Shown: positions 2,996 through 37,833 of the stretch, one piece after another
Position numbering within the stretch: position 1 is the first letter of the stretch
How the letters are laid out: each line of letters starts with the position of its first letter
Origin: Stellaceae bacterium
GTDB taxonomy: Bacteria > Pseudomonadota > Alphaproteobacteria > ATCC43930 > CGMCC-115725
DNA: 44,954 nucleotides
Assembly (NCBI GenBank): GCA_035319545.1
Contig: DATHCK010000193.1
Span: forward strand, 1 to 44,954
Direction of reading: 5' to 3'
Notes under the pieces: generated by a model
The model's input: the letters and a program-made list of their open reading frames with translations, nothing else
Databases searched by the model: none
Told to the model about the DNA's origin: nothing
Made by a program: the position numbers and the translations under genes

Positions 2996-3717
2996 CGTCC
3001 CATCCTCCGCCCGCTGCCGGCCTTTTCCGGCTCCGCGGCGCAATAACGTTCCCACAAATCGGGGCGGCGCTCTCGGGTCAAGAGCTCCGCCTGGGCCCGG
3101 CGCCAGGCGCGGACCCGACCGTGATCGCCCGACACCAGTGTCTCGGGAACCGTACGCCCGTGCCAGATGGCGGGGCGCGTGTAATGCGGATATTCGAGAA
3201 GGCCTTGCGTGAAGCTCTCCTCGTCAAGCGTCTCGGCGGCGCCAACCACGCCGGGCAGCAGGCGCACGCAGGCGTCAATCAGCGCGATCGCCGCCGGCTC
3301 GCCGCCCGACAACACAAAATCGCCAAGGCTCACTTCCTCGACCGCGTTTTCCTCGAGCGCGCGCTCGTCGACACCCTCGAAGCGGCTGCAAATGAGCCGC
3401 ACGCCGGGGCCGGCCGCCAGCTCGCGGACCCGTGTCTGGTCGAGCGGCTTGCCGCGCGGCGACAGGTTGATGAGCGGCCCCGCTCCGCCGGCGCCGGCGA
3501 TCGCGGCGTCGAGCACATCGGCACGCAGCACCATACCCGGCCCGCCGCCAAATGGCGCGTCATCGACCGAGCGGTGCCTGTCGGTCGCGAAATCGCGGAT
3601 GTCGACGGTGTCGAGCGCCCAAACCCCATTCTTCAGCGCCTTGCCGGCGAGCGAATAGGCGAGAGGGCCCGGCAGCATCTCCGGGAAAATCGTCAACACG
3701 GTCGCGCGCCAGGTCAT
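2992..3717 (-). CDS. trmD: tRNA (guanine37-N1)-methyltransferase
   Basis: [28 protein letters not shown]...[13 protein letters not shown]...LSGGEPAA is TrmD family. It has ATGA overlaps with rimM upstream and rplS downstream. Confidence 0.95.
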
Positions 3718-14478: not shown

Positions 14479-16925
14479 GGCGCGATCTCACGCGGCGGCA
14501 GCGGCGGGACGGCAAAGTTGGCGGGCGGCTCGCCGTGCTGGTAGCGCTCCCACATCGTCTCGTAGGCACTTTCGAGATGCCGGGTATAGCGGACCGTATC
14601 AAACAGCGGTTGGGTCGCGCGATTGCGTTCGAGCTTTGCCTTGACCGCAGCGAGCGCCTCGGGGTCGCGCGCGAGGCGCAGCGCCAGCGCCTCGTAGTCT
14701 TCGAGGTTTGCCGTCACCAGCTCGGGCAGGTCGATCGCGGCAAGCTGACTGGCCGCCATGCGGCCGACAAAGCTTGACCCGGCGCAGCTGACGAGCGGCA
14801 GTCCGGCCCACAACGCGTCGGCCGCCGTCGCGCCGGCATTATAGGGCACCGTGTCGAGAAACAGCCCCGCGAGGCGGTGACGCGCCAGATGCTCGGGCCC
14901 CTCCTTGCGGCGCGCGAACACCAGCCGGTCCGGGTCGATGCCGCGCTCTGCGGCATAGGCGCGCCTGTTGCGCACCGCCGCCGCGTTGCCATCGAGCAGC
15001 CACAGCACGCTGCCCTCGACCTGTCGCAGGAGTCGCAGCCACGCATCGAACACCGGTGGCGTGATCTTGTAAGTGTTGTTGAACGAGCAGAACACGAAGC
15101 CGGTGTCCGGTAGCCCTTCCTCGGCACGCGTCGGGGTGCGCGCGGAGATCGGGCGGGTCGCGTCGGTCGGCAAAAAAATCTCGGGCAGCCAGGCGATGTT
15201 CTCGCCGTAAAAGCCTTCTTCGCCCTCGGGGATCGTCGTGTGGTCGGCGATGATATAGTCGATGTAATCGGCGGCCATGGTGGCGAGATAGCCGAGATAG
15301 TTGACTTGGATCGGCGCCGGGCGGAGCGCGAAAATGTCCGGCTGGCACCATTTCTTGTAGCCCATCAGATCGACGGCGATATCGACCTGCCAGGCCTTCA
15401 ACATCGCGGCGATTTCGCGCGCGCCGCGATCGTGGGCGTCAAAGAAGCGGTCGAACGAGGCTCTGAGGCGGCCGACAAAGGCGTCACCTGGCGCCGGCCT
15501 GAACGAGACCGCGATGGTCTCGAAGCGCGCCCGGTCGTGCCGCTCCCAGACCTCGGCGATCGAGGAAGTCACGGCATGGGCCCGGAAATCGGCCGAGAGA
15601 TAGGCGACGCGGATGCGCTCATGCGGGTAGATCTCGCCGCGCCATAGCGGTAGCGGCGCCGGCGGATGCCGCTCCTGCCCGTAAAGCGCGGCGGCGGTGT
15701 GCTGCACGTCCGACGTTGTCGGCAGGCTGAGCACCATGAAAGGGGGCGCCACGCGCTGTCCCGCGGCAAGGCCGGCGCCGATGCGCTCGACCGCCGGCGC
15801 GTAATCCGTCCAGTCGCAACAGAGCAGCCGAGCGTAATGCAAGGTGCCGAGCGCGTAGGGATGATCCGGGCTCTGGCGCAGCAGCCGGGAGAAATCTTCG
15901 GCCGCTTCCGCGAAACGGTCGGTCTCGAGGAGCGCCGTGCCGCGATTGTTGAGCGCCTCGAGAAGACCCGGCTGCAGCATGAGCGCTCGGTCGTATCCGG
16001 CGATCGCCTCGTCGTACCGGCCGGCGGCCAGCAAGGCGTTCGCGCGATTGTAGATCGCCTCGACAAAGTCGGGGCTGAGCGCCAGCGCCTTGTCGTAGCT
16101 CGCGATGGCCTCGGCATGGCGGCCGAGCTGCCGCAACGCGCCGCCGCGGCTGTTGTAAGCTTCGGTGTCATCGGGCGTAAGCTGCAAGGTACGGTCGAAG
16201 CTGACGAGCGCCTCGTCGTAACGCTTGAGTTCGACAAGCGCGATGCCGCGATTGTGCAGCGCCGCGGCGAGATCAGGGTGCAGCCGCAACGCCGCGTCGA
16301 AGCTTGCCAGTGCCTCGTCGTACCGCCCGCCAGCGAGCAGCGCGTTGCCGAGGTTGTAATGCGCCTCGACATGGCCCGGGTTGAGCGCGATCGCCCGGCG
16401 GAACGCCGCGCTCGCTTCTTCCAGCTCGCCCCGGGCCTGCAGCGCCGAGCCGAGATTGTCGTGCGCGGCGGCGTTGCCAGGGTCGAGCGCGATCGCGCGG
16501 CGCAGCGCGTCGATTGCCTCCGCCACATGGTTCTGCCGCAGCAGGCAGTTGCCGAGCGCGGCCTGCGCGTCGGCGAAGCCCGGCGCGAGGCGCAACGCGA
16601 CCTGGTAATGCGCCGCCGCCTCGCCGAGATGGCCGCTGCCGCCGAGCGCCTCGGCAAGATTGTAGTGCAGCACCGGGATCCGCTGGTTCAACGACATCGC
16701 GCGGCGCAGCCGCTCGATCCCTGCCGCGACGGCGCCGGCCTGGCAGAGCACGAGGCCGCTCAAATGCAGCGCATCGACGTCGTCCGGCTCCCGCGCCAGG
16801 ATTTGCTGGCAGATGTCGTAGCCTTCCTGCAACGCGCCCGAGCGGCAATGCGCCAACGCCGCGGCAAAGGGCTGGCGCTCGCGATTGAGCCAGCCGTCCA
16901 AGGGATCCGCCGGGGTCGCGCTCAT
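14475..16925 (-). CDS. TPR-repeat protein fused to a GT41 (O-GlcNAc transferase-like) glycosyltransferase, copy 2
   Basis: Paralog of the downstream gene with the same architecture and motifs (FALRPAPIQVNYLGY, FCSFNNTYKITPPVF, SVLWLL, LDTVPYNAGATAADALWAGLPLVS, RMAASQL, YETMWERY). Confidence 0.88.
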   Translation of the reverse strand: MSATPADPLDGWLNRERQPFAAALAHCRSGALQEGYDICQQILAREPDDVDALHLSGLVLCQAGAVAAGIERLRRAMSLNQRIPVLHYNLAEALGGSGHLGEAAAHYQVALRLAPGFADAQAALGNCLLRQNHVAEAIDALRRAIALDPGNAAAHDNLGSALQARGELEEASAAFRRAIALNPGHVEAHYNLGNALLAGGRYDEALASFDAALRLHPDLAAALHNRGIALVELKRYDEALVSFDRTLQLTPDDTEAYNSRGGALRQLGRHAEAIASYDKALALSPDFVEAIYNRANALLAAGRYDEAIAGYDRALMLQPGLLEALNNRGTALLETDRFAEAAEDFSRLLRQSPDHPYALGTLHYARLLCCDWTDYAPAVERIGAGLAAGQRVAPPFMVLSLPTTSDVQHTAAALYGQERHPPAPLPLWRGEIYPHERIRVAYLSADFRAHAVTSSIAEVWERHDRARFETIAVSFRPAPGDAFVGRLRASFDRFFDAHDRGAREIAAMLKAWQVDIAVDLMGYKKWCQPDIFALRPAPIQVNYLGYLATMAADYIDYIIADHTTIPEGEEGFYGENIAWLPEIFLPTDATRPISARTPTRAEEGLPDTGFVFCSFNNTYKITPPVFDAWLRLLRQVEGSVLWLLDGNAAAVRNRRAYAAERGIDPDRLVFARRKEGPEHLARHRLAGLFLDTVPYNAGATAADALWAGLPLVSCAGSSFVGRMAASQLAAIDLPELVTANLEDYEALALRLARDPEALAAVKAKLERNRATQPLFDTVRYTRHLESAYETMWERYQHGEPPANFAVPPLPPREIAP

Positions 16926-19906: not shown

Positions 19907-20706
19907 CGTCGCCGGCGGTGCGGCGGATCCTGATCCTGGCGCCGCATCCCGACGATGAGATCGTCGCTTGCGGCATCGCCGCCCACCGCGCCCGGTCCGC
20001 GGGCGCGCAGATCTTCGTGCAATACCTCAGCACCGGTGTCCCGCCACCCGAGCTGCAGTGGCGATGGCGGCGCGGCGGCTACGAGGCGAGGGCCGCGCGC
20101 CGGCGTGAAGAAGCCCTGGCGGCGGCGATGATGCTGCGGGCGCGGCCGGTCGGGTTTTTTGACATTCCCTCGCGCCGGCTGGTCGCGCATCTCGACGAGG
20201 CGGCGCAAGCGCTCGACCGGGCGCTCCGCGAGACGCGCGCGACCGAGCTTTGGGTCACCGCGTTCGAGGGCGCGCACCAGGATCACGACACCGCCAACGC
20301 GCTCGCCGCCAGCGTGCGCGACCGGCTGCCAGTTTGGGAATTCGCCGCCTATAATTTTGTCGGCGGGCGGGTGTGGTCGAACCGTTTTCCCGACGCACGC
20401 GGCGGGGTCGTAGAGCTACGGCTCAGCCGCGAGGAGACGGCACTGAAGCGCCGCGCCCTGACGCTCTACCGCTCGGAGCGCGGCAACCTCGCGCATATCC
20501 GGGTCGAGGAGGAAGCCTATCGCCCGCTGCCACGTCACGATTACAGCGCGCCGCCGCATGCCGGCACGCTGTTTCGCGAACGTTTCCAATGGGTGCGGTT
20601 GCGTCATCCGCGGATCGATTTCACGCCCTCGGCCGAGATCTACGCGGCGCTCGGGAAATGGAGCGCCACGGCAAGGCTTGACACGAGTGCCGCGGCCGTC
20701 GGGTGA
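19888..20706 (+). CDS. PIG-L / LmbE-family N-acetylglucosaminyl deacetylase
   Basis: ILILAPHPDDEIVACG and AHQDHD zinc-ligand motifs of the LmbE/PIG-L family. The start at ATG 19888 overlaps the GT4 gene by 19 nt. Confidence 0.8.
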   Translation: MDEQRLTSPAVRRILILAPHPDDEIVACGIAAHRARSAGAQIFVQYLSTGVPPPELQWRWRRGGYEARAARRREEALAAAMMLRARPVGFFDIPSRRLVAHLDEAAQALDRALRETRATELWVTAFEGAHQDHDTANALAASVRDRLPVWEFAAYNFVGGRVWSNRFPDARGGVVELRLSREETALKRRALTLYRSERGNLAHIRVEEEAYRPLPRHDYSAPPHAGTLFRERFQWVRLRHPRIDFTPSAEIYAALGKWSATARLDTSAAAVG

Positions 20707-20734
20707 TGGCGGGCACAGTTGCGCGAGGCAGCGC

Positions 20735-21772
20735 GTGAAGTTCAGCACATTTCTCTTTCCCGACAGCCGCGATCCCGCCGAGGACGGCCAGGTCATCGAC
20801 GAGACGGTCCGCGAGGCGGTGCTCGCCGATCGGCTCGGTGCCGATATCGTCTGGCTCGCCGAGCACCATTTCGACGGCATCTCGGTCTATGCCGACCCGA
20901 TGGTGCTGGCGGGGGCGCTGGCGGCTTCGGTGCGGCGGGCTGGGCTCGGCTTCGCGGTGATCCAGACCGCCTTGCACCATCCGGTCCGCCTCGCCGAGCA
21001 GATGGCGCTGCTCGACCATTTGATGAAAGGCCGGCTGATCGTCGGGCTCGGTCGCGGCAGCTCGTTCAACATCTACGACTATCAGGGCTTCGGCATCGAC
21101 CATCACGAGGCGCAGGCGCGGCTCGACGAGGCCGAGGCGATCATGGTCAAGGCCTGGAGCGGTGACGAATTCGAGCACGCCGGCCGGTTCTGGCAGGTGC
21201 AGGTCCCGATGCTGCGCCCGCTGCCGTATACGCGGCCGCACCCGCCGGTGATCCGTGGCTCATCGACCGACGGGTCGCTGGTCGAGTTGGCGCGCGAGGG
21301 CAAGCCGTTCATGATGAACGTGCAGTCGCTGGAAACGACAACTCGCCGCGTCGATCTGTACCGGCAAACGATGCGCGACGAGGGATTTGGCGAGGAGCGC
21401 ATCGCCGCGAACCTCGAGGCGAGCTGGGCATGGCGCAATTTCTATGTCGCGAAGGATGACGAGACGGCCGAGCGCGTCGGCATTCCCGCCTTCGAGACGA
21501 TGACCCGCGCCCGCGCCGAGATGCGCGACCGCTATGCCGCGATGGGGCAGCGCATCGTGCCGGTGGACGCACTGCCCGGTGCCCGCAGGGCCCGCGGCGA
21601 GGGGCTGATCCACGGCGCGCCGTCGCGGGTCGCCGAGGACGTCGCGGCGATCGACCGGCTCGGGATCGGCGGCATTATCGGTACGTTTCGCCTCGGGCCG
21701 ATGCCGCACGAGGTCGCAGCCGAAAGCCTCACGCTGTTCCTGGAAAAGGTCGCGCCGCAGTTCCGCGGCTAG
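20735..21772 (+). CDS. LLM-class (luciferase-like) flavin-dependent oxidoreductase, copy 1
   Basis: VKFSTFLFP...DIVWLAEHHFDGISVYADP...GRLIVGLGRG is luciferase-like monooxygenase family. GTG start at 20735, in frame inside the longer track ORF. Confidence 0.85.
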   Translation: MKFSTFLFPDSRDPAEDGQVIDETVREAVLADRLGADIVWLAEHHFDGISVYADPMVLAGALAASVRRAGLGFAVIQTALHHPVRLAEQMALLDHLMKGRLIVGLGRGSSFNIYDYQGFGIDHHEAQARLDEAEAIMVKAWSGDEFEHAGRFWQVQVPMLRPLPYTRPHPPVIRGSSTDGSLVELAREGKPFMMNVQSLETTTRRVDLYRQTMRDEGFGEERIAANLEASWAWRNFYVAKDDETAERVGIPAFETMTRARAEMRDRYAAMGQRIVPVDALPGARRARGEGLIHGAPSRVAEDVAAIDRLGIGGIIGTFRLGPMPHEVAAESLTLFLEKVAPQFRG

Positions 21773-21948
21773 TGTTCTTCGCTGCCCTGGCTGGCGATGC
21801 GTTCCTGTTCAGCCAGCAGCTCGTCCTCGGCCAGCCGCGAGAACAGCGCCCTGCGCCGCTCGCACATCTGATGGATTTTGCGCTCGATGCCGCCGGGGAA
21901 GGGATCGAGCACATACTCACGGGCGAGCGGCTCGTCGATCTGGCTCAT
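21769..21948 (-). CDS. Hypothetical small protein (59 aa; may extend upstream to a GTG near 22078)
   Basis: MSQIDEPLAREYVLDPFPGGIERKIHQMCERRRALFSRLAEDELLAEQERIASQGSEEH has coding-like GC3 by eye. No family recognised. Confidence 0.4.
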   Translation of the reverse strand: MSQIDEPLAREYVLDPFPGGIERKIHQMCERRRALFSRLAEDELLAEQERIASQGSEEH

Positions 21949-22385
21949 CCGAGCGCCGATGCGCTCGAGCAGCAACTGCACTTCGCTGAGCGGGATATAG
22001 CCTAGTTGCAGCAATGCTCGACTTAGTTGGGCGGCCAACTTGCGTTTCCTTGCCACTTGCCGTTGTGGCGTTCGGGACACCCCCTTATCGCGCAAAGTCG
22101 TTAACGCCAGACAAACGCGAGGCCGCCGCCACCGGTTTCGCGACGTTCGTCTCGCTTCGTAAGTAAGGCTTGATCGCACGCGGCCGAGCGGCACCGATCG
22201 GGCCGATTTATCTTCAGACGCGGGTGCGAATCGCGGCTTCGCGGGTGTGCTCGTTCGCCGCACGCCGTTGCGAGCTAAGTGAGGGTTCTGACTGACAGAA
22301 TCCGAAAGGAAAATGGCCGTCTTGACCCGGTGGCATGATGGGGTGCACAGCCGTGGCGAGACAAACGAGGGGCGGGTGCCGGGAG

Positions 22386-22799
22386 ATGGCCGAGCTGTTC
22401 GGATGGGGAGAGGAAATGGCCGGCGCGGTCGACTGCGTCGGCTTCGAGAGCGAGCCCGCCACCGACCCGAAAGCCGCCGAAAGCGAAGGCGTGCGGGCCG
22501 AGAAAGCCCCGGCGCCGGCAACATCGCGGCCTCGACGCCGTACCAAGGCGCGCGCCGCCCAAGCGTCTGCGGAGCGGGTCGACCTGTTCGCGCCGAAAGC
22601 TGTTTTGCCGCTGCCCGTCCAGCGCCGTGTCCCGCCGCTGTCGCCCGATCTCGAAGGGCGGATCAACGCTTATTACGCGCCGCGCGACGGGTTCGTCGCG
22701 ATCCTACCGGACCGTGAGCGCCGCGCGGCCGAGAAGCGGGCGCAACCGAGGCGGCTTGCCAGGCTCGGGCATTTCTTCACCGCGCTGGTCGGCGCGTGA
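22386..22799 (+). CDS. Hypothetical protein, probably disordered (Ala/Pro/Arg-rich)
   Basis: The frame has consistently G/C third positions by eye (MAELFGWGEEMAGAVDCVGFESEP...INAYYAPRDGFVAILPDRERR). The start is uncertain (alternative 22335). No family recognised. Confidence 0.4.
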   Translation: MAELFGWGEEMAGAVDCVGFESEPATDPKAAESEGVRAEKAPAPATSRPRRRTKARAAQASAERVDLFAPKAVLPLPVQRRVPPLSPDLEGRINAYYAPRDGFVAILPDRERRAAEKRAQPRRLARLGHFFTALVGA

Positions 22800-22907
22800 C
22801 GCCGCGCCGCGCGGCGTTGTCGCAGCGAGGGAGTGGCCTTCGGTTTGCACTCGACCTTGCCAAGGCGGCTTCCTACATGAGCGTTACAAGCTCGGTGGAG
22901 TAGATTG

Positions 22908-23930
22908 ATGAAATTCGGACTTTTTGGCGGGGCGCGCGCACGTGGCGGGCCGGCCGGCGACAGCGACGGCTATCACGACTTCATCAACTACGTCGTCGAG
23001 GCCGAGCGGCTCGGGTTTTCGAGCGTGTTTCTCGTCGAGCACCATTTCACCGGGTTCGGCCAAGTCTCCGCTTCGCTCAATCTGCTGAGCTATCTCGCGG
23101 CGCGCACCGAGCGCATTCGCCTTGGCACCGCGGTCGTCGTGCTGCCGTGGCACAACCCGATCCTCGTCGCCGAGCAGGCGGCGACGCTCGACCTGTTGTC
23201 CAACGGCCGGCTCGATCTCGGCGTCGGCAAAGGCTATCGCGCTTACGAATTCTCCGGGTTCTGCGTGCCGCAGGACGAGGCGACGGAGCGCTTCGACGAA
23301 GCGATGGAGGTCATTCGCCTGTCGTGGCAGTCGGGCGGCGAGCGGTTTTCCTATAAGGGCAAGTGGCACTCTTACGACAATGTCGTTGTCGAGCCGAGCC
23401 CGATCCAGCAGCCGCACCCGCCATTCTGGCTTGGCGCCGGCAGCGCTGAGTCGATCGGTCGCGCGGCGCGCGAGGGGTACAATCTGCTGCTCGACCAGAT
23501 CGCGCCAACCGACATCATCATCGACCGGGTCAAGACCTTCCGTGAGGAATGCAAGGCTTGCGGCCGCGCCTATGACCCGATGATGGTGGGGGTGACTCGC
23601 GGGTTGCAGATCATCCGCAAGGAATCCGAGCGCAAACAGGCGATCCGCACGCGTCGCGAGGTGCTGAAGAACATTGGTGATTTGGCGCGCGGCCCCGGCG
23701 CCGAGCGCTACCACCAGATCAAGGACGACGAGGACGCGTTTGTGCTCGACGACGCGCCGCTCCTCGGCACGCCGGAGGAAATCGTCGCTCAGCTGAAGCG
23801 GCTCGAAGCCGGCGGTATCGAGAACGTGCTGTTCGCCGCGCCAGGCGCCTCGGTCGCGCATCTTCGCACCTTCGCCGAGGAGATCATGCCGGCCCTTGGC
23901 GGTGATCCGATGGGCCTCGCGCAGGTGTAA
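22908..23930 (+). CDS. LLM-class flavin-dependent oxidoreductase, copy 2
   Basis: MKFGLFGG...SVFLVEHHFTGFGQVS...GRLDLGVGKGY. SD GGTGGAG lies 7 nt upstream of ATG 22908. Confidence 0.88.
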   Translation: MKFGLFGGARARGGPAGDSDGYHDFINYVVEAERLGFSSVFLVEHHFTGFGQVSASLNLLSYLAARTERIRLGTAVVVLPWHNPILVAEQAATLDLLSNGRLDLGVGKGYRAYEFSGFCVPQDEATERFDEAMEVIRLSWQSGGERFSYKGKWHSYDNVVVEPSPIQQPHPPFWLGAGSAESIGRAAREGYNLLLDQIAPTDIIIDRVKTFREECKACGRAYDPMMVGVTRGLQIIRKESERKQAIRTRREVLKNIGDLARGPGAERYHQIKDDEDAFVLDDAPLLGTPEEIVAQLKRLEAGGIENVLFAAPGASVAHLRTFAEEIMPALGGDPMGLAQV

Positions 23931-23931
23931 C

Positions 23932-23995
23932 CCCGCCGCTGTCATTCCTGCTTTCGCGCGTTAAACTCGCGCCCCGGAATGACAAGAGCGGCGGG
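23932..23995. repeat. Palindromic element GTCATTCC...GGAATGAC with flanking arms CCCGCCGCT/AGCGGCGGG, between the LLM and SDR genes
   Basis: 23941-23948 and 23976-23983, and 23932-23940 and 23987-23995, are exact reverse complements. The termini match the 4255-4375 element. Confidence 0.7.
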
Positions 23996-24003
23996 AGGGA
24001 ACG

Positions 24004-24858
24004 ATGCCCAATGATCGCGAGAACCGGGTGGCGCTGGTGACCGGCGGGTTGCGCGGCCTCGGCAAGGCGATGGCGCTCGGGCTGGCGCGCGAAGGGCACC
24101 CGGTCGTCGCGGTCGGTCATATCGAAGGCGATGTCGCCGAGATGGAGGTCGAGGCCGAGAAGCTGCAAGTCAGTCGGCGCTTCCAGCCGCTCGTCGCCGA
24201 TCTGCGGGAAGCCAGCGAATGCGACCGGGTAGTCGCGGCGACGGGCGAGCGCTTTGGCAAGGTGGATATCCTCGTCAACAGCGCCGGCCTCACCTTCACC
24301 TATATCGACCCGGCGCGGTTCCGTCGTGACAGCCTGCAGCGCTTCTGGCAGGTCAGCGATGAGATCATCGACAATGTCATCACCACCAACTACCTCGCCG
24401 CCGACCGGCTGGCGCGCCGCGTCGCGCCAGCGATGATCGAGCGCGGATGGGGCCGCATCGTCAACGTCACCACCAAGCTCGACACGATGAACCGCATCGG
24501 CACGCACCCTTATGGCGCATCAAAAGCCGCTCTCGAAATGGCGACGGAAGTGTGGGCCAAGGACGCGGAGGGGACGGGGATGACAGTCAACATCGTCAAC
24601 CCCGGTGCTGGCGCCAACACGCCCGGCATGGCGGTGGAAGCGCGCGCGCTGGCCGAGGCCGGCAAGATGGCGCGCCTCGTCGAGCCCGAGGAAATGGTCG
24701 GGCCGATGAACTTTGTCGCCTCACGCGAGGCCGACGCGGTCAATGGTTGGCGGTTTGACGCTAATCTGTGGAACCCGGCGCTCCCCGCCCGCGAAGCCGC
24801 CTGGCTCGCCGGCCGGCCGGCCGGATTTGTCTTTCACCCGCACCGGGATTTGCCGTGA
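24004..24858 (+). CDS. SDR-family oxidoreductase
   Basis: VALVTGGLRGLGKA (TGxxxGxG), NSAG, and catalytic YGASKAAL (YxxxK). Confidence 0.88.
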   Translation: MPNDRENRVALVTGGLRGLGKAMALGLAREGHPVVAVGHIEGDVAEMEVEAEKLQVSRRFQPLVADLREASECDRVVAATGERFGKVDILVNSAGLTFTYIDPARFRRDSLQRFWQVSDEIIDNVITTNYLAADRLARRVAPAMIERGWGRIVNVTTKLDTMNRIGTHPYGASKAALEMATEVWAKDAEGTGMTVNIVNPGAGANTPGMAVEARALAEAGKMARLVEPEEMVGPMNFVASREADAVNGWRFDANLWNPALPAREAAWLAGRPAGFVFHPHRDLP

Positions 24859-26879
24859 CCGACGGCGAAGACCCGTTCCTCTGGCTCGAAGACGTCGAGG
24901 GCGAGAAGGCGCTCGACTGGGTGCGCGGGCAGAATGCGCGCACCATCGAACGGCTTGAGGCCGACCCGCGCTACCAGGCGCTTTACGAGACGACGCTGGC
25001 GATCCTCACCGCCGAGGATCGCATCCCCTACCCGATGTTCTTGGGGCGGGGGGTCAGTAATTTCTGGCAGGACGGCACCCATGTGCGCGGCCTGTCGCGG
25101 CGCACCACGCTCGCCTCCTACCGCGGCGCCGAGCCTCAATGGGAGACCATTCTCGATTTTGATGCGCTCGCTGCCGCCGAGGGGCGCAACTGGGTCAACG
25201 CCGGTGCCTCGATCCTGCCGCCCGAGGATCGGCATTGCATGCTCGCCCTGTCGGACGGCGGCAAGGACGCGGTGACCCTGCGCGAGTTCGACATCGTCGC
25301 GCGGCAATTCGTCGACACCGGCTTCGCGCTTCCCGAAGGCAAGCAGTCCGCGACCTGGCTCGATGCAGACACGCTCTTCGTCGCGCGCGACTGGGGGCCG
25401 GGCACGATGACGGCGTCGGGCTACCCCTACATTGTCAAGCGCTGGCGCCGCGCCGCGTCGCTCGACAGCGCCGAGGAGATTTTCCGCGGCACACAAGACG
25501 ACGTCAGCGTCCGCGTTGGCGTGCTGCGCGATCCTGACGGCACGGTGCGCGGCATCGTCGCGACGCGTGCGATTGATTTCTATATCAGCGAGCGGTTTCT
25601 CCTGACCGGGTCCGGCGCGCTCAAGCTCCCGCTCCCCGGCAAAGCGAGCCTGCAGGCATTTGTTTCCGGCCAGATGGTCTTTACCCTCGAGGAGGCCTGG
25701 CGCGGTTTCCCCGCGGGCGCCCTCGTCTCGCTCGATCTGCAGCAATGCCTCACCGACATCGCCACCGCGCGCCCGCTGCTGATCTACGCCCCGGGCCCGC
25801 GCGAGACCATTGAGGGTGTCGCCGCCAGCGCGTCGCGCCTGCTGGTCGCGGTCTACCGCAATGTGCGCGGCAGCGCGGTCGTCTACCGCTTCGACGCCGG
25901 CGCCTGGCGCGCCACGCCGCTGCCGCTTCCCGACAACGCCTCGGTGCAACTCGTCACCACCAGCGACGGCGACGACACCGCCTTTCTCGACATCGCCAGC
26001 TACCTCCTGCCCAACACGCTCTATTTCGCCGATCTCGCCGCCGCTACGGCCGAGCCGGTCAAGGCGATGCCGGCGCGGTTCGATGCATCAAAGGCCGTGG
26101 TCGAGCAGTTCGAGGCCATCTCCAAGGACGGCACCGCCATCCCCTATTTCGTCGTCCGTCCACGCGATCTCGCGTTCGACGGCAACGCGCCGACCCTGCT
26201 CTACGGTTATGGCGGGTTTCAGGTGTCGATGAACCCTGCCTATTCGGGCGGACTCGGCAAGATGTGGATCGAGCCGGGTGGCGTCCATGTCGTCGCCAAT
26301 ATCCGCGGCGGCGGCGAGTTCGGGCCCGAATGGCACCAGGCCGCGCTCAAGCAGCACCGGCAGCGCGCCTATGACGATTTTATCGCGGTCGCCGAAGATT
26401 TAATCGCCCGCAGGATCACCTCGCCCCGCCGGCTGGGGATCATGGGCGGGTCGAATGGCGGGCTGTTGATGGGGGCGATGCTGACCCAGCGTCCCGAGCT
26501 CTTCCGCGCCGTGGTGTGTCAGGTGCCGCTCCTCGATATGCTGCGCTACCACAAGCTCTTGGCCGGTGCGTCATGGATGGCGGAATACGGCGACCCGGAC
26601 AACCCGGCGGAACGGCCGTTTCTCGAACGCATCTCGCCCTATCACCATCTGCGCGCAGGCACGACCTATCCCGAAATCTTCTTTCTCACCTCGACCAAGG
26701 ACGACCGGGTACATCCCGGCCATGCGCGCAAGATGGCGGCAAAAATGGCTTCGATGGGCCTACCGTTCCTTTATTACGAGAATATCGACGGCGGCCACGC
26801 GGCCGCCGCCAACCTCGATGAGCGCGCGCGCCGCAACGCCCTCGAATTCACCTATCTCTTCGAAAAGCTGATGGATTGA
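24855..26879 (+). CDS. Prolyl oligopeptidase family (S9A) serine peptidase
   Basis: DPFLWLEDVEGEKALDWVRGQN N-terminus, a propeller region, catalytic GGSNGGLL, and a C-terminal DGGH. The GTG start overlaps the SDR stop (GTGA). Confidence 0.88.
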   Translation: MTDGEDPFLWLEDVEGEKALDWVRGQNARTIERLEADPRYQALYETTLAILTAEDRIPYPMFLGRGVSNFWQDGTHVRGLSRRTTLASYRGAEPQWETILDFDALAAAEGRNWVNAGASILPPEDRHCMLALSDGGKDAVTLREFDIVARQFVDTGFALPEGKQSATWLDADTLFVARDWGPGTMTASGYPYIVKRWRRAASLDSAEEIFRGTQDDVSVRVGVLRDPDGTVRGIVATRAIDFYISERFLLTGSGALKLPLPGKASLQAFVSGQMVFTLEEAWRGFPAGALVSLDLQQCLTDIATARPLLIYAPGPRETIEGVAASASRLLVAVYRNVRGSAVVYRFDAGAWRATPLPLPDNASVQLVTTSDGDDTAFLDIASYLLPNTLYFADLAAATAEPVKAMPARFDASKAVVEQFEAISKDGTAIPYFVVRPRDLAFDGNAPTLLYGYGGFQVSMNPAYSGGLGKMWIEPGGVHVVANIRGGGEFGPEWHQAALKQHRQRAYDDFIAVAEDLIARRITSPRRLGIMGGSNGGLLMGAMLTQRPELFRAVVCQVPLLDMLRYHKLLAGASWMAEYGDPDNPAERPFLERISPYHHLRAGTTYPEIFFLTSTKDDRVHPGHARKMAAKMASMGLPFLYYENIDGGHAAAANLDERARRNALEFTYLFEKLMD

Positions 26880-26933
26880 AAGAGGCGCCGCTCGGCCGCA
26901 AACCGAGGCGACGCCCTTCCAAATTCCGTCCCC

Positions 26934-27419
26934 TTAGGGGACTTGCGTGAGCGAAATCGCCGCGATGCCGGCGGCCACATTGAGGCCGGTATTGCCCTCG
27001 ATGCTGAGCGGCTGCAGCGCGATTTGGTTGCCCGAGCCGCCGATCAGAGCATTCGCGCCGAGGCCGACGCCCACCGTGGCGCTGGCGGTGCCTCCAGCGT
27101 AGCCGCCGTTGAGCGCACCTGGCATCAATGTCGCCTGCGGAGCGAACACGGTCCACACGATCACGCCACCCTGCGTGTAGCCGATGTCGGCGCCGAATTT
27201 CGTGATGTTGCCGGAGTAGTGTTCGGAATTGCCATTGGTCCCGGTGAAGGTGCAATTCAGCGAGCGCGACGAGCCGAAAATGAAACCCCAACCGCTCGAT
27301 ACATTGCAGCTCAACACGCCCGCAGCAATGCCCGGAGCCGCCGATGCCGGGGTCACCGCCGCGGCGCCTGCGACGATCGCCGCCGCCAAAGCCGCGGCCC
27401 GATATTTCTTCATCTTCAT
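26934..27419 (-). CDS. DUF992-family secreted protein
   Basis: Signal peptide MKMKKYRAAALAAAIVAGAAA, then GVLSCNVSSGWGFIFGSSRSLNCTF...FGADIGYT...ATVGVGLGANALIGGS..IALQPLS, typical of Rhizobiales DUF992 as I recall it. Confidence 0.75.
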   Translation of the reverse strand: MKMKKYRAAALAAAIVAGAAAVTPASAAPGIAAGVLSCNVSSGWGFIFGSSRSLNCTFTGTNGNSEHYSGNITKFGADIGYTQGGVIVWTVFAPQATLMPGALNGGYAGGTASATVGVGLGANALIGGSGNQIALQPLSIEGNTGLNVAAGIAAISLTQVP

Positions 27420-27526
27420 CTTCACCTTTCTCCATGGTTTGACGACGTCATATGTCGCGTGAGGGATACAGCTTAGACAGTTTTTTACCTGTCGTTGGTT
27501 CGGATCAGAAAAATTTTCGTGATGGG

Positions 27527-27796
27527 TTAGCGGTGATGCCCGCCGGCGTGGCCAGCGCCGCCATGGTAGCCGCCGTGCCATCCCCCGCCGCGCCAGCCGC
27601 GACCGTAATAAAAGCCGAAGCCCGGCACAATGATGGGATCGGAGTAATAGCCCAGCGGCGCACAGCCATAACCCTCGATGTAATAGTAACCGTCCGGGCA
27701 CCAATATTGCGCGCTCGCGGGCGATGTTACGACCGCGGTGGCTGTTAACCCCAACACGGTCGCGAGAAACGCGGCCTTAGTCAAACGTTTCGCCAT
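27527..27796 (-). CDS. Small secreted Gly/Tyr/His-rich protein (89 aa)
   Basis: Signal peptide MAKRLTKAAFLATVLGLTATAVVTSPASA. The mature part is QYWCPDGYYYIEGYGCAPLGYY...GRGWRGGGWHGGYHGGAGHAGGHHR. SD GGAGG lies upstream. Confidence 0.65.
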   Translation of the reverse strand: MAKRLTKAAFLATVLGLTATAVVTSPASAQYWCPDGYYYIEGYGCAPLGYYSDPIIVPGFGFYYGRGWRGGGWHGGYHGGAGHAGGHHR

Positions 27797-27865
27797 TTTG
27801 ACCTCCGAGAGAATGGCTGCGGCCAGCGGCCTATCTGGTTGATAGAAAGGACAGCGGCGCCCGCA

Positions 27866-28390
27866 TCACTGGCTGCGGCGCAGCCAGATCGGCTTTCGCC
27901 GCTGACGGAATTGCTCGAAATACCTGTCCGCGGCAGCCTTCTGCTGGTCGGACAGGCTCTGGTAGAGCGCGTCGAACGGAGCAATCAGCCGGCTTGTCGC
28001 CTCGGCATGGGCGGCGGTCAGTTGGGCATACCAGCGCAGCCGCGCCGGGGCGGTGAAGTCGGTGACGGGCACCCGTTGCAAAAACAGCGCGTGAATGGCG
28101 TGCGCGTTGGCGCGCATCGCATCCGCATAAGCATCGAACAAAACCTCCTGACCCGGTTGGATATTGAGCTGTCGGTGCAGGGTGGCGATGCGCAGTTCGA
28201 TCTCGTCCGCAAATCGCTCGGGAAGCGGGGCGGCAACAGCCGGTGGTGGCGCCGGCGGCATCGGGGCGGCTGCGGGAGGCGGTGCGGGCATGGGCGCTAC
28301 CGGTGCGACGCAACCGCCGAGCGATACCGCCGCGGCGATCATTGCGCCGGATGCCCAGGCGCTCATCCACGGCCTTACGGAATTCGTCAT
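27866..28390 (-). CDS. Periplasmic LTXXQ-motif (Spy/CpxP/ZraP-like) lipoprotein
   Basis: Lipobox AVSLGGC, a Pro/Ala-rich linker, and helical repeats with LTXXQ-like motifs (LHRQLNIQPGQ, LSDQQK). Strong SD GAGGAGG. Confidence 0.65.
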   Translation of the reverse strand: MTNSVRPWMSAWASGAMIAAAVSLGGCVAPVAPMPAPPPAAAPMPPAPPPAVAAPLPERFADEIELRIATLHRQLNIQPGQEVLFDAYADAMRANAHAIHALFLQRVPVTDFTAPARLRWYAQLTAAHAEATSRLIAPFDALYQSLSDQQKAAADRYFEQFRQRRKPIWLRRSQ

Positions 28391-28626
28391 GGTTCCTCCT
28401 CTCTTGCTGCCTGCGACCGCGCGGGCGCTGGATGAACGCCAGGGGATCAGTGAGGGGAAGGTGGGTGAGGCGGGCTTTGACTGCCTTGATTCAAATCAAT
28501 AAGCCGGGGCGCTCCGGAATGCGTCGCAATCCCGCTTTCGGTTATGCGCCCGAGGTGCTTGGAATTGGCCGGCGCTTGCCCCTAGTCTAGCGTCACGTGG
28601 ACGACAGCCTGTTTCGGGAGGAACTC

Positions 28627-29811
28627 ATGGCGATCAGCAAATTCACCACCGTCTATGCCGGCCATATCGATTTTCCCGATCACGGCCAGGACGCGACCCC
28701 GGCCAACGAGCGCCGCTTTACCAATGACGAGCTGGCGAGCGTGTTCGAGAAGTCGGAGGCGATCGCCAAGACGATGGACCGACTCGGCTACGACATGATG
28801 TGGATGGCCGAGCACCACTTCCAGCACGAAGGTTACGAGTGCATCCCCAACATCCTGATGCTGGCGGTTCACCTTTGCCACGTGACGAAGAACATCAAGA
28901 TCGGCTGCGGCTTCAACATCACGCCGATGTGGCATCCGCTGCGTCTCGCCGAGGATTTCGCGGTCGCCGACATCCTCACCAAGGGCCGCACCGTGTTTGG
29001 GGTCGGGCGCGGCTACCACACCCGCGAGGTCGAGACCTTCGGCGCGCCGATGATGGATGGCGACGCCAATCGCGAGCTGTTCGAGGAACAGGTCGAGATC
29101 GTCATGAAGGCCTTCAACAACGAGAGATTCTCGCACAAGGGCCAGCACTACACGCTGCCGCCGGCGGTGCCCTACCGCGGCTATGATTTGAAGGAGCTGA
29201 GCCTGGTGCCGCGCCCGGTCAACATGCCGGTCGAATGCTGGCAGCCGATTGTCAGCGCCAACCCGCGCGGGCTCGACTTCATGGTTAAGCACGACATCAA
29301 GGGCGCGGTCGGCGGCGGCGCGGCGACAATGCAGGCCGGGCCGATCCAGGGCTACATGGACGCCGCGCACCGCGCCGGCAAAAACTGGAAGCTCGGTGAG
29401 AACCTGACGATCGGCATCCATTTCATGGTCGGCAAGACCAAGGAAGCCGCGTTAAAGGCTCTGAAGCCGCTTTATGAAGAGCATGCCAAGATGTTCGCGC
29501 CGTTGGGTTTTGTGCCCGGCCTCACGCCGGCGCAAGTCGCCGCGGTGGCGAAGCGCGGCGGATGGGACGCGGCCGGTGTGCCGAGCGTCGAGCACTACGT
29601 GAATTTGGGGTCGTGGTTTGCCGGCTCGCCGCAAGATTTGGTCGAGCGGCTCACGAAGATCGAGGAAGACTATCCCGGCATGGAGCTGATGAGCCTGTCG
29701 CCGCCATTGACGACGCCGAAGGAATTGATGCTCGAGCAGTTTCAGATCGTCGCCGAGGAGGTCATGCCGCATTTTCGCGCGAAGCCGGCGATGAAGGACG
29801 CCGCTAAGTGA
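28627..29811 (+). CDS. LLM-class flavin-dependent oxidoreductase, copy 3
   Basis: MAISKFTTVYAGH...DMMWMAEHHFQHEGYE...GRTVFGVGRGY. SD GGGAGGA lies upstream of ATG 28627. Confidence 0.88.
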   Translation: MAISKFTTVYAGHIDFPDHGQDATPANERRFTNDELASVFEKSEAIAKTMDRLGYDMMWMAEHHFQHEGYECIPNILMLAVHLCHVTKNIKIGCGFNITPMWHPLRLAEDFAVADILTKGRTVFGVGRGYHTREVETFGAPMMDGDANRELFEEQVEIVMKAFNNERFSHKGQHYTLPPAVPYRGYDLKELSLVPRPVNMPVECWQPIVSANPRGLDFMVKHDIKGAVGGGAATMQAGPIQGYMDAAHRAGKNWKLGENLTIGIHFMVGKTKEAALKALKPLYEEHAKMFAPLGFVPGLTPAQVAAVAKRGGWDAAGVPSVEHYVNLGSWFAGSPQDLVERLTKIEEDYPGMELMSLSPPLTTPKELMLEQFQIVAEEVMPHFRAKPAMKDAAK

Positions 29812-35873: not shown

Positions 35874-37142
35874 GTGACGATAGCCGCGCCCCGATTACCC
35901 GCCGCGCTCGCCGCCCGTACGCCGTTCTTCTACGGCTGGGCGGTGCTCGCCTGCCTATGCTGCGCCGGGTTCGCGCGGCAGGGGCCGGCGGTGTCGACCT
36001 TGTCGGTCTTTGTCGAGCCGCTGACCCGCGATTTTGGCTGGTCTCGCACTGCGCTGTCGGGCGCGGTGTCGCTCGGCGGCATTCTCGCCGCGATCATCTC
36101 GCCGAGGATCGGCGTTTTTCTCGACCGTGCCGGCTCGCGGCTGGTGCTGTGCTACGCGGTGCTGACGACGGGTGTGGCGCTCTTGGCGCTGTCGCTGACA
36201 TCGTCGCTGGCGATGTTTTACGTGCTGTTCTGCGTCGCGCGGATGAACTGGGCGAGCCCGTTCGAGCTCGGCATCTACGGCGCGGTCAACAATTGGTTTG
36301 TGGCGCGCCGGCAGTTCGCGACATCGGTCGCCACCTTGGCGCAGATGGCGGGGCTGGTGACCATGCCAATCCTCGCCGAGCTGGCGATGCTGCGCTGGTC
36401 GTGGCGCGCCGGCTGGCTGGTCATCGGCGCTCTGACCCTGGTCGTCGGGTTTCTGCCGACCTGGCTCTTACTGGTGCGTCGGCCTGAGGATGTCGGGCTG
36501 CATCCTGACGGAGTGAAGCACGAGCCGGATGCCAGCGGCAGCGCGGGCGTGGTGCGGGAGCCCGAGCCGGATTTCACTCGCGCCCAGGCGCTGCGCACCC
36601 CGGCGTTTTGGCTGATGCTGGCCTACACGGCGCTGGTCTACCCGATCCAGGCGGGGATCAGCCTGCACATGGCGCCGCATCTGATCGAGCACGGCATCGA
36701 CCCGGCCATCGTCGCGACGATCGTCAGCACCTATTCGCTGATGTCGGCGGCGGCGAGCCTCGCCTGTGGGTTTCTGCCGCGGCGACTGCCGATCCGCTAT
36801 CCGATGGCGGCGATCGGCGTGTTTCTGACGGTGAGCCCACTGCTGATGAGGGGCATTACCTCGCCCGCCGAGGCGTATCTCGCGGCGGCGCTGTTCGGGT
36901 TTGGGGTCGGTGGCATCTTGACCCTGCTGCCGATCGCCTGGGCCGATTATTTCGGCCGCGCCAGCTTTGGCGCGATCCGCGGCGTCGCCTTGTCGGCGCA
37001 GGTCGTGTCCCAGGCGGTGGGGCCGATGGTGTCGGGGGCGCTGCGCGACTGGACGGGCGACTATCGGCTGTCGCTGACGGTGTTCGCGATGTTTGGCGCG
37101 CTCAGCGTCGTCGCGGCGCTGTGCTCGCGGCCGCCACGTTGA
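35874..37142 (+). CDS. MFS transporter
   Basis: 12-TM-like hydrophobic pattern with an MFS loop motif region (GVFLDRAGSR). GTG start. Confidence 0.8.
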   Translation: MTIAAPRLPAALAARTPFFYGWAVLACLCCAGFARQGPAVSTLSVFVEPLTRDFGWSRTALSGAVSLGGILAAIISPRIGVFLDRAGSRLVLCYAVLTTGVALLALSLTSSLAMFYVLFCVARMNWASPFELGIYGAVNNWFVARRQFATSVATLAQMAGLVTMPILAELAMLRWSWRAGWLVIGALTLVVGFLPTWLLLVRRPEDVGLHPDGVKHEPDASGSAGVVREPEPDFTRAQALRTPAFWLMLAYTALVYPIQAGISLHMAPHLIEHGIDPAIVATIVSTYSLMSAAASLACGFLPRRLPIRYPMAAIGVFLTVSPLLMRGITSPAEAYLAAALFGFGVGGILTLLPIAWADYFGRASFGAIRGVALSAQVVSQAVGPMVSGALRDWTGDYRLSLTVFAMFGALSVVAALCSRPPR

Positions 37143-37217
37143 TCAAGTACGCTTGCGCCTCCGCGCAAGCTCGCGGTTCCGGACGAGGGCGACACGGATG
37201 TGTCGCCGCACTTGATC
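37141..37217. other. Structured convergent intergenic element: outer arms GATCAAGT/ACTTGATC enclosing two perfect 8-bp hairpins
   Basis: Three arm pairs are exact reverse complements: 37141-37148 with 37210-37217, GCTTGCGC (37151-58) with GCGCAAGC (37163-70), and GGCGACAC (37188-95) with GTGTCGCC (37200-07). The element spans the whole gap between the MFS and DsbA-like stops. Confidence 0.65.
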
Positions 37218-37833
37218 AGCTCCGTTTCACCGCGCCGGCCTTCTCGACGAGCTGCGCCAGCACCTCGTAGGGCTGCGCGCCGACGACGCCATAGCGCGCG
37301 GCGACAAAGGTCGGAACGCCGGTGACGCCGTAATTCGCCGATTTCTGCCAGTCGGCGTCGACCGCGTCCTTGAAGCGGCGCTCCTCCAGCACCTTCTTCG
37401 CCTCTTCGGGGTCGAGCCCGACCTTCGCGACGATGTCGAGCAGCACCGCGGGGTCGCCGATATTGCGGCAATCGACAAAGTAGGCCCGGTAGGCGGCATC
37501 GTGATAGGCCGCGCCGCCGCCCGGCTGGGTATCGGCCCATTTGCCGAGCTCCTGCGCCAAGCGGCTGTTGTAGCTGTGGGTGCGCTTGCCGTAGGGCAGG
37601 CCCTCGGCGTCCATGCGCGCCTTCATCTCCTGGTACATCTGCTCGGGGTCGCGCCCGCGCTGCCGATACCAGGGCGCCATCTCGCGCCCCTCCTGCGGCG
37701 TGTCGGGGTGCAGCGGGAAGTGCACGAGCACCGGCTCGATGTCGTACGTCGCCTTGAGCTTTTCGATACGCACGGTAGCGAGATAGCACCAGGGTCAGAC
37801 GTAGTCGGTGAAGATCTCGAAAGTGACGGGCAT
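37216..37833 (-). CDS. DsbA/FrnE-family thiol:disulfide oxidoreductase with an in-frame TGA (37795-37797) at the first Cys position of CPWC; candidate selenoprotein or pseudogene
   Basis: The minus strand reads ATG(37833)-MPVTFEIFTDYV-TGA-PWCYLATVRIEKLKATYD..., continuous with track ORF 37216..37773. The C-terminal region ...NYGVTGVPTFV... is typical of the DsbA/FrnE family. Confidence 0.6.

Follow-up and report, generated by a model that had tools for sequence, protein, structure and literature searches.

We examined a 44,954-nucleotide stretch of DNA from a Stellaceae bacterium (contig DATHCK010000193.1 of assembly GCA_035319545.1; hereafter the window), whose minus strand carries at 37216-37833 a gene for a DsbA/FrnE-like oxidoreductase in which an in-frame UGA (37797-37795) is very probably a genuine selenocysteine (Sec) codon. 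On this strand an ATG at 37833-37831 opens a run of 12 sense codons (MPVTFEIFTDYV), after which comes the TGA, and the same frame then runs on as PWCYLATVRIEKL... up to a second TGA at 37218-37216. The read-through product is 205 aa long, with the recoded position at residue 13. A mechanical list of open reading frames (ORFs) contains in this place a 185-aa ORF, 37216-37773, starting at the GTG at 37773. This arrangement of start, internal TGA and shortened ORF had been described in the original prediction, and both the sequence and its translation agreed with it. No further disabling mutations were found in the TGA-bearing gene. The original prediction had also proposed that the TGA replaces the first Cys of a C-P-W-C motif to give a U-P-W-C selenoprotein, and this proposal was supported by the conservation of the TGA, by a stem-loop resembling a selenocysteine insertion sequence (SECIS) and by the family match of the protein. 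Reassignment of UGA in the genetic code was ruled out, since TGA ends 16 of the 29 window genes, the selenoprotein gene included, and is the commonest stop. UGA is thus not reassigned in this genome, and a local recoding signal is therefore needed.

The conservation of the TGA was assessed in 167 homologous DNA sequences, which comprised 159 sequences (the window, 80 loci of species-representative genomes and 78 metagenome contigs) and eight divergent relatives. An in-frame TGA occurred at the homologous codon in all 167, which span 37-95% identity and at least two phyla. In the species-representative genomes, TGA was present in 80 of 80 loci with 70-95% protein identity, belonging to Stellaceae, other metagenome-assembled genomes (MAGs) of Alphaproteobacteria and MAGs of Rokubacteria/Methylomirabilota. 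Every soil-metagenome contig spanning the codon had TGA as well (73/73), and five more contigs, cut close to the codon, brought their number to 78; the metagenome scan was queried with a Cys-type ortholog and thus was biased toward Cys forms. Furthermore, all eight distant cluster representatives, which share 37-48% identity with the Cys ortholog, carried TGA-CCN-TGG-TGY. Upstream of the TGA, the codons GAG/GAA, TTC/TTT, GAC/GAT, TAC/TAT and GTC/GTT/GTA/GTG alternated, and the encoded E, F, D, Y and V were invariant in 81 of 81 sequences. These codons vary synonymously or conservatively, and the stretch 5′ of the TGA is therefore translated; protein-level selection acts on both sides of the TGA. 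When only the best-matching loci were compared, which is no census, 159 TGA genes stood against two distinct Cys orthologs, and the Sec form thus appears nearly fixed in this terrestrial clade. A Sec form had been expected to be unusual in what was originally taken for a Rhizobiales-type chromosome. Neither point held, because the relatives are Stellaceae, which NCBI places together with Allostellaceae in Rhodospirillales, and Rokubacteria/Methylomirabilota MAGs, and because Sec seems nearly fixed in the lineage.

These data also bear on two simpler explanations of the TGA. The case for a sequencing or assembly error at 37795-37797 is the prior plausibility of a single-base mistake and nothing more. 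Contigs of two other ENA metagenome assemblies of near-identical strains (L165 and L166, identical to the window at 736/738 and 735/738 positions) encode an identical 185-aa product, differ from the window at two to three other positions and still have the TGA, as do all orthologs, so that the probability of an error is practically negligible. The gene could otherwise be a nonsense pseudogene, a functional CPWC gene inactivated by a change of TGC/TGT to TGA; a single transition or transversion would suffice for this, and gene callers do read a stop here. Nevertheless, this explanation is extremely unlikely, given the TGA in 167/167 homologs, the synonymous variation 5′ of it, the lack of other disabling mutations and the rarity of Cys forms, which are the exception among the orthologs; independent assemblies exclude that the orthologs are assembly chimeras. 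Error and pseudogene had both been listed as alternatives at the outset, together with the proposal to look at whether orthologs have Cys or TGA at this codon. With TGA in 80/80 genomes, 73/73 contigs and 8/8 divergent relatives, and in the two other assemblies, both alternatives lost their footing.

Next to the redox motif, we found a constraint that acts on the RNA. The 9-mer ACC GTG CGT, which encodes Thr20-Val21-Arg22 and lies at +21 to +29 after the TGA, was identical in 81 of 81 sequences even at its fourfold-degenerate sites; neighboring synonymous sites had undergone 11-22 changes on a tree inferred from the remainder of the gene. Its five central bases, CGTGC, were kept in 157 of the 159 sequences, and ACC GTG was retained in all eight divergent relatives. 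The constraint was relaxed in Cys orthologs: at the 9-mer, P0093 has ACG GCG CGC and P0114 has ACC GCG CGT, both with TGC in place of the TGA, and 33 Cys-type (CPWC) representatives showed 26 different dipeptides at the Thr-Val position, T-V occurring once. Because the 9-mer is near-invariant in TGA genes and changed in Cys orthologs, the constraint goes with the TGA and operates at the RNA level. The 9-mer supplies the loop and the two loop-closing pairs of the SECIS that we propose below, and since this SECIS would lie inside the reading frame, the codons ACC-GUG-CGU and hence Thr20-Val21, at the start of helix α1, would be fixed by it.

The same 9-mer explains how the gene has been annotated. 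The best 120 database homologs were nearly all 183-185 aa long and covered only 90% of the query, a pattern that points to the same stop within their frames, and about 21 divergent representatives likewise begin at the GTG position; codons 2-12 are dropped from the database gene calls. It could be argued that the real product is this 185-aa protein from GTG 37773 and that the upstream frame is an untranslated leader, as the database homologs are called that way and the GTG is conserved at its position. Such a protein, however, would be without strand β1 and the entire CxxC motif, although the Pfam match starts from residue 6 of the long form, and the 12 upstream codons evolve as protein. Moreover, the GTG is kept as part of ACCGUGCGU, and it is GCG in the Cys orthologs, which are called full-length. 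A 185-aa product consequently has hardly any probability.

We propose that the recoding signal is a stem-loop at 37787-37758. In this structure a three-pair lower stem (alignment columns 11-13 with 38-40) and a 7-bp upper stem (columns 17-23 with 29-35) carry a 5-nt apical loop, and column 15 also pairs with column 37. The hairpin starts 8 nt, its upper stem 13 nt and its loop 20 nt after the UGA (columns 4-23). Among 81 sequences, 93% of cells in the hairpin were paired, compared with 31-44% for slid controls, and compensatory changes occurred at three pairs. Pair 21:31 was U:A in 116 and C:G in 43 of the 159 sequences with zero mismatches, and had changed jointly three times on the gene tree; pair 19:33 had gone from AU to GC in several separate lineages of a diverse set, and pair 12:39 showed a switch from CG to UA. 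In the diverse set the upper stem was 91% paired, and its covariation was above that of 500/500 shuffles and of all slid controls. According to the published description (PMC13188914), the loop of a bacterial SECIS element comprises 3-9 nt and its upper stem 4-16 bp; 16-37 nt separate the UGA from the loop, one of the first two loop bases is G, as a rule with G/U after it, and the energy is at most -7.5 kcal/mol. Loop and upper stem are within these limits, the distance of 20 nt from UGA to loop falls inside the published range, and position 2 of the loop was G, followed by U, in 158 of 159 sequences. The energies are borderline: -7.7 kcal/mol for the named structure and -9.0 kcal/mol for the minimum in the window. 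Thus, the conserved stem-loop 3′ of the TGA that the original prediction had called for exists and covaries.

The proposed element resembles known SECIS elements of bacteria (E. coli fdhF type; bSECISearch model) in being a coding-region stem-loop just 3′ of the UGA, with a small apical loop reading G then U, a spacing of 16-37 nt and an upper stem of 4-16 bp. Its sequence, however, is unrelated to that of fdhF; its loop and closing pairs (ACCGUGCGU) are unusually conserved across relatives at 37-48% protein identity; and the GUG of its loop is at once a Val codon and a false start codon.

A second hairpin competes with this one for the 9-mer. When RNAalifold was run on the 81-sequence alignment, it picked a UGA-proximal hairpin (37795-37768; columns 3-30) in which the UGA-CCN-UGG-UG segment is paired with ACCGUGCGU, so that the two hairpins are mutually exclusive. 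Sec could therefore be inserted with this hairpin as the SECIS, or with both hairpins alternating as a switch. In addition to the RNAalifold preference, the UGA-proximal hairpin was 97% paired in the diverse set (17-56% for slid controls), had a slightly better mean energy (-7.4 versus -6.7 kcal/mol for the downstream hairpin) and would also account for the invariance of ACCGUGCGU. Yet it showed no compensatory pairs in the 81-sequence alignment, and in the diverse set seven of its 10 pairs never varied and its covariation was not above that of shuffles; its energy in the window was only -1.0 kcal/mol. It was rejected as a SECIS for this lack of compensatory changes, for a spacing of 10 nt instead of 16-37 nt and because neither of its first two loop bases is G. 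Moreover, it does not account for the coupled changes of columns 31, 33 and 39. The general ribosome footprint also implies that a ribosome with the UGA in its A site would cover the 5′ half of the proximal helix and thereby free the 9-mer for the downstream hairpin. We therefore regard the UGA-proximal hairpin or an alternation of the two as a rather unlikely basis for Sec insertion, and the hairpin at 37787-37758 as probably the functional SECIS; the UGA-proximal hairpin may form before decoding, that is, before the ribosome arrives. The small helix at 37790-37774 noticed originally is real and forms the core of the RNAalifold helix, but it fails the spacing and loop limits of a SECIS and lacks covariation.

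Some members of the family departed from the common pattern. The protein P0098 has Arg at the Sec position (...FTDYVRPWCY...) and keeps Thr-Val-Arg; this may reflect a change of TGA to CGA/AGA or an odd translation in the source. In the Cys-type gene at L084:1001-1621 the SECIS stem is still present with its loop U changed to C, and the Cys-type protein P0222 still has the residues T-V-R, so both look like recent Sec-to-Cys conversions. The Rokubacteria/Methylomirabilota loci (L019, L040, L043, L051, L055, L070 and L075) form a subgroup of their own, with Phe at -8 and with a GAG at alignment column 36 that adds a C:G pair to the stem. The 72-74% identity of their genes to the alphaproteobacterial ones suggests a transfer between phyla.

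The protein itself was assigned to a family by its sequence. Searched with Cys written at the TGA position, it matched Pfam DSBA (PF01323) with an E value of 4.8e-31 and 108.5 bits (cut-off 25.6) over profile positions 3-189 of 191; in a search of NCBIfam, no model scored above its cut-off for the 205-aa product. By sequence, the solved structures nearest to it were those of SCO1869 from Streptomyces coelicolor (PDB 3gl5; phmmer, E=2.3e-22) and of Deinococcus radiodurans FrnE (PDB 5cnw and others; phmmer, E=3.1e-18), the latter matching over residues 4-195. In both alignments the TGA position falls on the first Cys of D-I-A-C-P-W-C-Y. The TGA is likewise aligned with TGC in P0093 and P0114 and with Cys in the 33 CPWC representatives, which makes it a Sec/Cys pair. 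Homologs are labeled by JGI as "predicted DsbA family dithiol-disulfide isomerase". The loop T-G-V-P-T-F (residues 171-176) aligns with TGVPFF in FrnE and SCO1869, and we take its proline to be the cis-proline of the DsbA/thioredoxin-fold active site. Cysteines occur in the product only as C16 and C122. The DSBA match begins at residue 6, and the modeled β1 of the Cys ortholog begins at residue 5; therefore, no room is left for a signal peptide and a cytoplasmic location is expected. An AlphaFold model of the Cys ortholog showed β1, the motif, α1, the helical insertion and the β-β-α portion in the expected order, with a predicted local distance difference test score (pLDDT) of 72. Because the model was mediocre, with a template modeling (TM) score of about 0.3 against its best structural matches, the family assignment is based on sequence and not on the model.

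The comparison with relatives of known structure or function delimits the protein further. It shares with FrnE and SCO1869 the active site D-x-x-C-P-W-C-Y, the loop T-G-V-P-(T/F)-F and a DsbA core of comparable length, and all three lack a signal peptide; FrnE and SCO1869 have Cys where Sec is proposed here. FrnE is 260 aa long and has a C-terminal Cys tail (Cys239; a C239S structure entry exists), whereas the window protein ends at residue 205; with this Cys-containing tail (~C239) missing, the window protein is FrnE-like and not a FrnE ortholog. Like FrnE, the selenoprotein should be cytoplasmic. Periplasmic DsbA (E. coli, CPHC) likewise has a helical insertion in its thioredoxin fold, a cis-Pro loop and, at the N terminus of α1, a motif of the CxxC type. 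The window protein, unlike periplasmic DsbA, has no signal peptide, and while the latter is a disulfide oxidant, the former would be expected to act as a cytoplasmic reductase or isomerase.

DsbA-like selenoproteins have been catalogued repeatedly. A "DsbA-like protein" (COG2761, UxxC) was one of the new selenoprotein families in the 2005 Sargasso Sea survey, with nine sequences (PMC1088965), and the selenoprotein was subsequently listed in four sequenced bacteria (PMC1794560). In the GOS survey, "DsbA 1" (pfam01323, UxxC) had 63 Sec forms and 704 Cys homologs, with a higher abundance in marine samples (PMC2398784); a later survey of about 5,200 genomes counted 41 organisms with a DsbA-like selenoprotein (PMC5029168), and a 2026 review lists "DsbA-like protein form 1" (PF01323, UxxC; PMC13188914). 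The statement in the original prediction that DsbA-like Sec forms figure in selenoproteome surveys was thus correct in all five of these sources. The window gene is a member of this selenoprotein family known since 2005 and not a new kind of recoding: it has the PF01323 domain, its proposed Sec stands at the first CxxC cysteine, Cys homologs are widespread, and shortly 3′ of the UGA there is a SECIS-like hairpin whose small apical loop contains a G. The published DsbA-like subfamily (representative NIP15863.1) may be the same as that of the window gene or a different one. A difference from the family as described is that Sec seems nearly fixed here in a terrestrial clade of Stellaceae, other Alphaproteobacteria MAGs and Rokubacteria. 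This near-fixation in a large terrestrial clade, the extreme conservation of the SECIS core across very divergent relatives, and the SECIS-imposed Thr-Val with the false GTG start that lies behind the database-wide truncation all appear to be unreported in the searchable literature.

Support for the Sec machinery came from a relative. On the contig L042, whose protein is 75% identical, a tRNA-Sec gene (3180-3273, minus strand) is found upstream of the orthologous TGA gene, at a distance of about 240 nt and in divergent orientation. The tRNA matched Rfam RF01852 with 71.5 bits, the gathering score being 47; its anticodon is UCA, its variable arm is long and its discriminator base is G. Some Rhodospirillales are documented to carry selABC clusters (PMC8124441).

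Several observations weigh against the reading of the UGA as a Sec codon with a SECIS at 37787-37758. That reading is drawn from sequence, and selenium in the protein is a prediction. None of selA, selB, selC and selD was found in the 45-kb window by Pfam on its 29 genes, ARAGORN and Rfam: the Pfam matches were to housekeeping, transport and monooxygenase genes with no sel gene, and ARAGORN and Rfam returned no tRNA and no Rfam match. When ARAGORN was applied to 175 loci, a tRNA-Sec was detected in L042 alone and in 0 of 174 others. A tblastn search of 1.1 Mb of loci with E. coli SelD gave no match, which weighs little because the query was approximate and the flanks of the loci were short. 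As to the hairpin, a regional minimum free energy of at most -7.5 kcal/mol was reached by 158 of 159 sequences, but by the fixed structure in only 8 of 159, and the window hairpin was no more stable than shuffled sequence (z=0.19), so that stability was not used as evidence. Pair 20:32 is a C-U mismatch in the window copy. The first and last loop bases (C and C) are unpaired, unlike in the commonest published loop pattern, in which this pairing is optional. The covariation comes mostly from a few lineage-level events, about three for pair 21:31, and the strong pairing of the UGA-proximal hairpin involves the same 9-mer. Finally, a Foldseek search with the model of the Cys ortholog, a weak model, ranked SCO1869 and FrnE first at a TM score of only about 0.3.

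It was also considered that the UGA is recoded to an amino acid other than Sec, either to Cys by a SelB-dependent tRNA-Sec-like tRNA or through read-through by near-cognate tRNA-Trp. tRNA-Sec-like tRNAs charged with Cys were reportedly described by Mukai et al. in 2016, no selA or selD was seen in the window, and the SECIS evidence speaks to recoding of the SelB type and not to the amino acid carried. Against this, the tRNA linked to the gene in L042 is a canonical tRNA-Sec by its score and its long variable arm, with the G discriminator expected for serylation, and the recoded position is the classic Sec/Cys site of a catalogued selenoprotein family. With Cys inserted, it would be hard to see why more than 160 lineages retain a costly UGA when it could mutate to UGC; unassisted read-through would leave the conserved hairpin unexplained. 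Recoding to another amino acid is hence quite improbable, and Sec remains the preferred reading.

For the source genome we infer SelB/tRNA-Sec decoding and incorporation of Sec along the following lines. The UGA at 37797-37795 would be decoded by Sec-tRNA(Sec), brought by the elongation factor SelB, which would be recruited by the coding-region SECIS hairpin. The product would be a 205-aa cytoplasmic DsbA/FrnE-like thiol-disulfide oxidoreductase with the active site Sec13-Pro-Trp-Cys16 instead of Cys-Pro-Trp-Cys. Its selenolate would attack as the nucleophile, and the selenenylsulfide would be resolved by Cys16. Like FrnE, the enzyme would serve as a disulfide reductase or isomerase, and its active site would be more reactive.

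A wider proposal is that the soil Stellaceae, other Alphaproteobacteria and Rokubacteria hold a large, previously unrecognized terrestrial clade of FrnE-like selenoproteins with Sec essentially fixed and an ultraconserved SECIS (ACCGUGCGU) kept below 40% protein identity, combined with a two-hairpin switch. Taken as a whole, we hold this proposal to be doubtful. In such a switch the 9-mer would have two alternative partners, the UGA-CCN-UGG segment and the downstream arm, so that only one of the hairpins could exist at a time; the first hairpin might mask the UGA region until the ribosome melts it, thereby releasing the SelB-binding hairpin at decoding.

The main value of these findings would lie in annotation, in the selenium biology of soils and in the overlap of SECIS and coding sequence. 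In the databases, hundreds of such genes are stored as truncated 183-185-aa "DsbA family proteins" without an active site, because the gene caller restarts at the GTG in the SECIS loop; with no NCBIfam model for the family, standard pipelines keep making this truncation error. Whereas surveys call the family more abundant in marine samples, the lineage here is one of soil Alphaproteobacteria where Cys hardly ever takes the place of Sec, which implies a persistent selective advantage and a selenium dependence in those soils. The Thr-Val after the active site would be a case in nature where an RNA signal sets the protein sequence, and a SECIS this compact and highly conserved could serve the engineering of Sec insertion. 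The features are collected in Table 1.

Table 1. Coordinates of the candidate selenoprotein gene and of its RNA elements in the window
Feature	Position	Strand	Basis or remark
Coding sequence of the candidate DsbA/FrnE-like selenoprotein, complete	37216..37833	minus	Sequence, translation, Pfam DSBA, SCO1869/FrnE matches
ATG start codon	37831..37833	minus	Sequence; Met of orthologs 12-13 codons 5′ of TGA
Codons 2-12 (PVTFEIFTDYV), predicted strand β1	37798..37830	minus	Protein-level conservation, mostly synonymous variation
In-frame TGA, proposed Sec codon, residue 13	37795..37797	minus	Aligns with the first, nucleophilic Cys of CPWC
Redox motif U-P-W-C (TGA CCC TGG TGC)	37786..37797	minus	P, W and C invariant in 81/81
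GTG (Val21) in the proposed SECIS loop, mis-called start	37771..37773	minus	ORF list, database homologs
Near-invariant 9-mer ACC GTG CGT (Thr20-Val21-Arg22)	37768..37776	minus	81/81 identical
Proposed SECIS stem-loop	37758..37787	minus	Pairing versus slid controls, covariation, published SECIS criteria
Proposed SECIS lower stem	37787-37785 : 37760-37758	minus	Columns 11-13 : 38-40
Proposed SECIS upper stem, 7 bp	37781-37775 : 37769-37763	minus	Columns 17-23 : 29-35
Proposed SECIS apical loop CGUGC	37774-37770	minus	5 nt
UGA-proximal alternative hairpin, mutually exclusive	37768..37795	minus	RNAalifold; holds the helix 37790-37774
T-G-V-P-T-F loop, residues 171-176	37306..37323	minus	Invariant in 25 family members
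Own terminator TGA	37216..37218	minus	Sequence

The surroundings of the gene were compared among 119 informative loci, and this synteny revealed no operon and no functional clue. The sole recurrent neighbor of the selenoprotein gene was a convergent gene for a major facilitator superfamily (MFS) transporter (35874-37142, plus strand, in the window), which was present in 46 of the 119 loci and also beside Cys orthologs; divergent ATP-binding cassette (ABC) transporter genes adjoin the gene only in the closest relatives. The selenoprotein gene appears to be monocistronic, and a scan for its promoter and terminator gave nothing useful. A scan of the window for other genes with an in-frame TGA, based on high GC content at third codon positions on both sides, yielded antisense frames and gene boundaries only, with no second candidate.

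Two further regions of the window were recorded. On the minus strand at 11905-16925 lie two tandem paralogs of 857 and 816 aa with many tetratricopeptide (TPR) repeats, both of which have a C-terminal domain of glycosyltransferase family 41 (O-GlcNAc-transferase-like). The region 20558-29811 contains three luciferase-like monooxygenase genes (20558-21772, 22905-23930 and 28597-29811) in the vicinity of genes for a short-chain dehydrogenase and an S9 prolyl-oligopeptidase.

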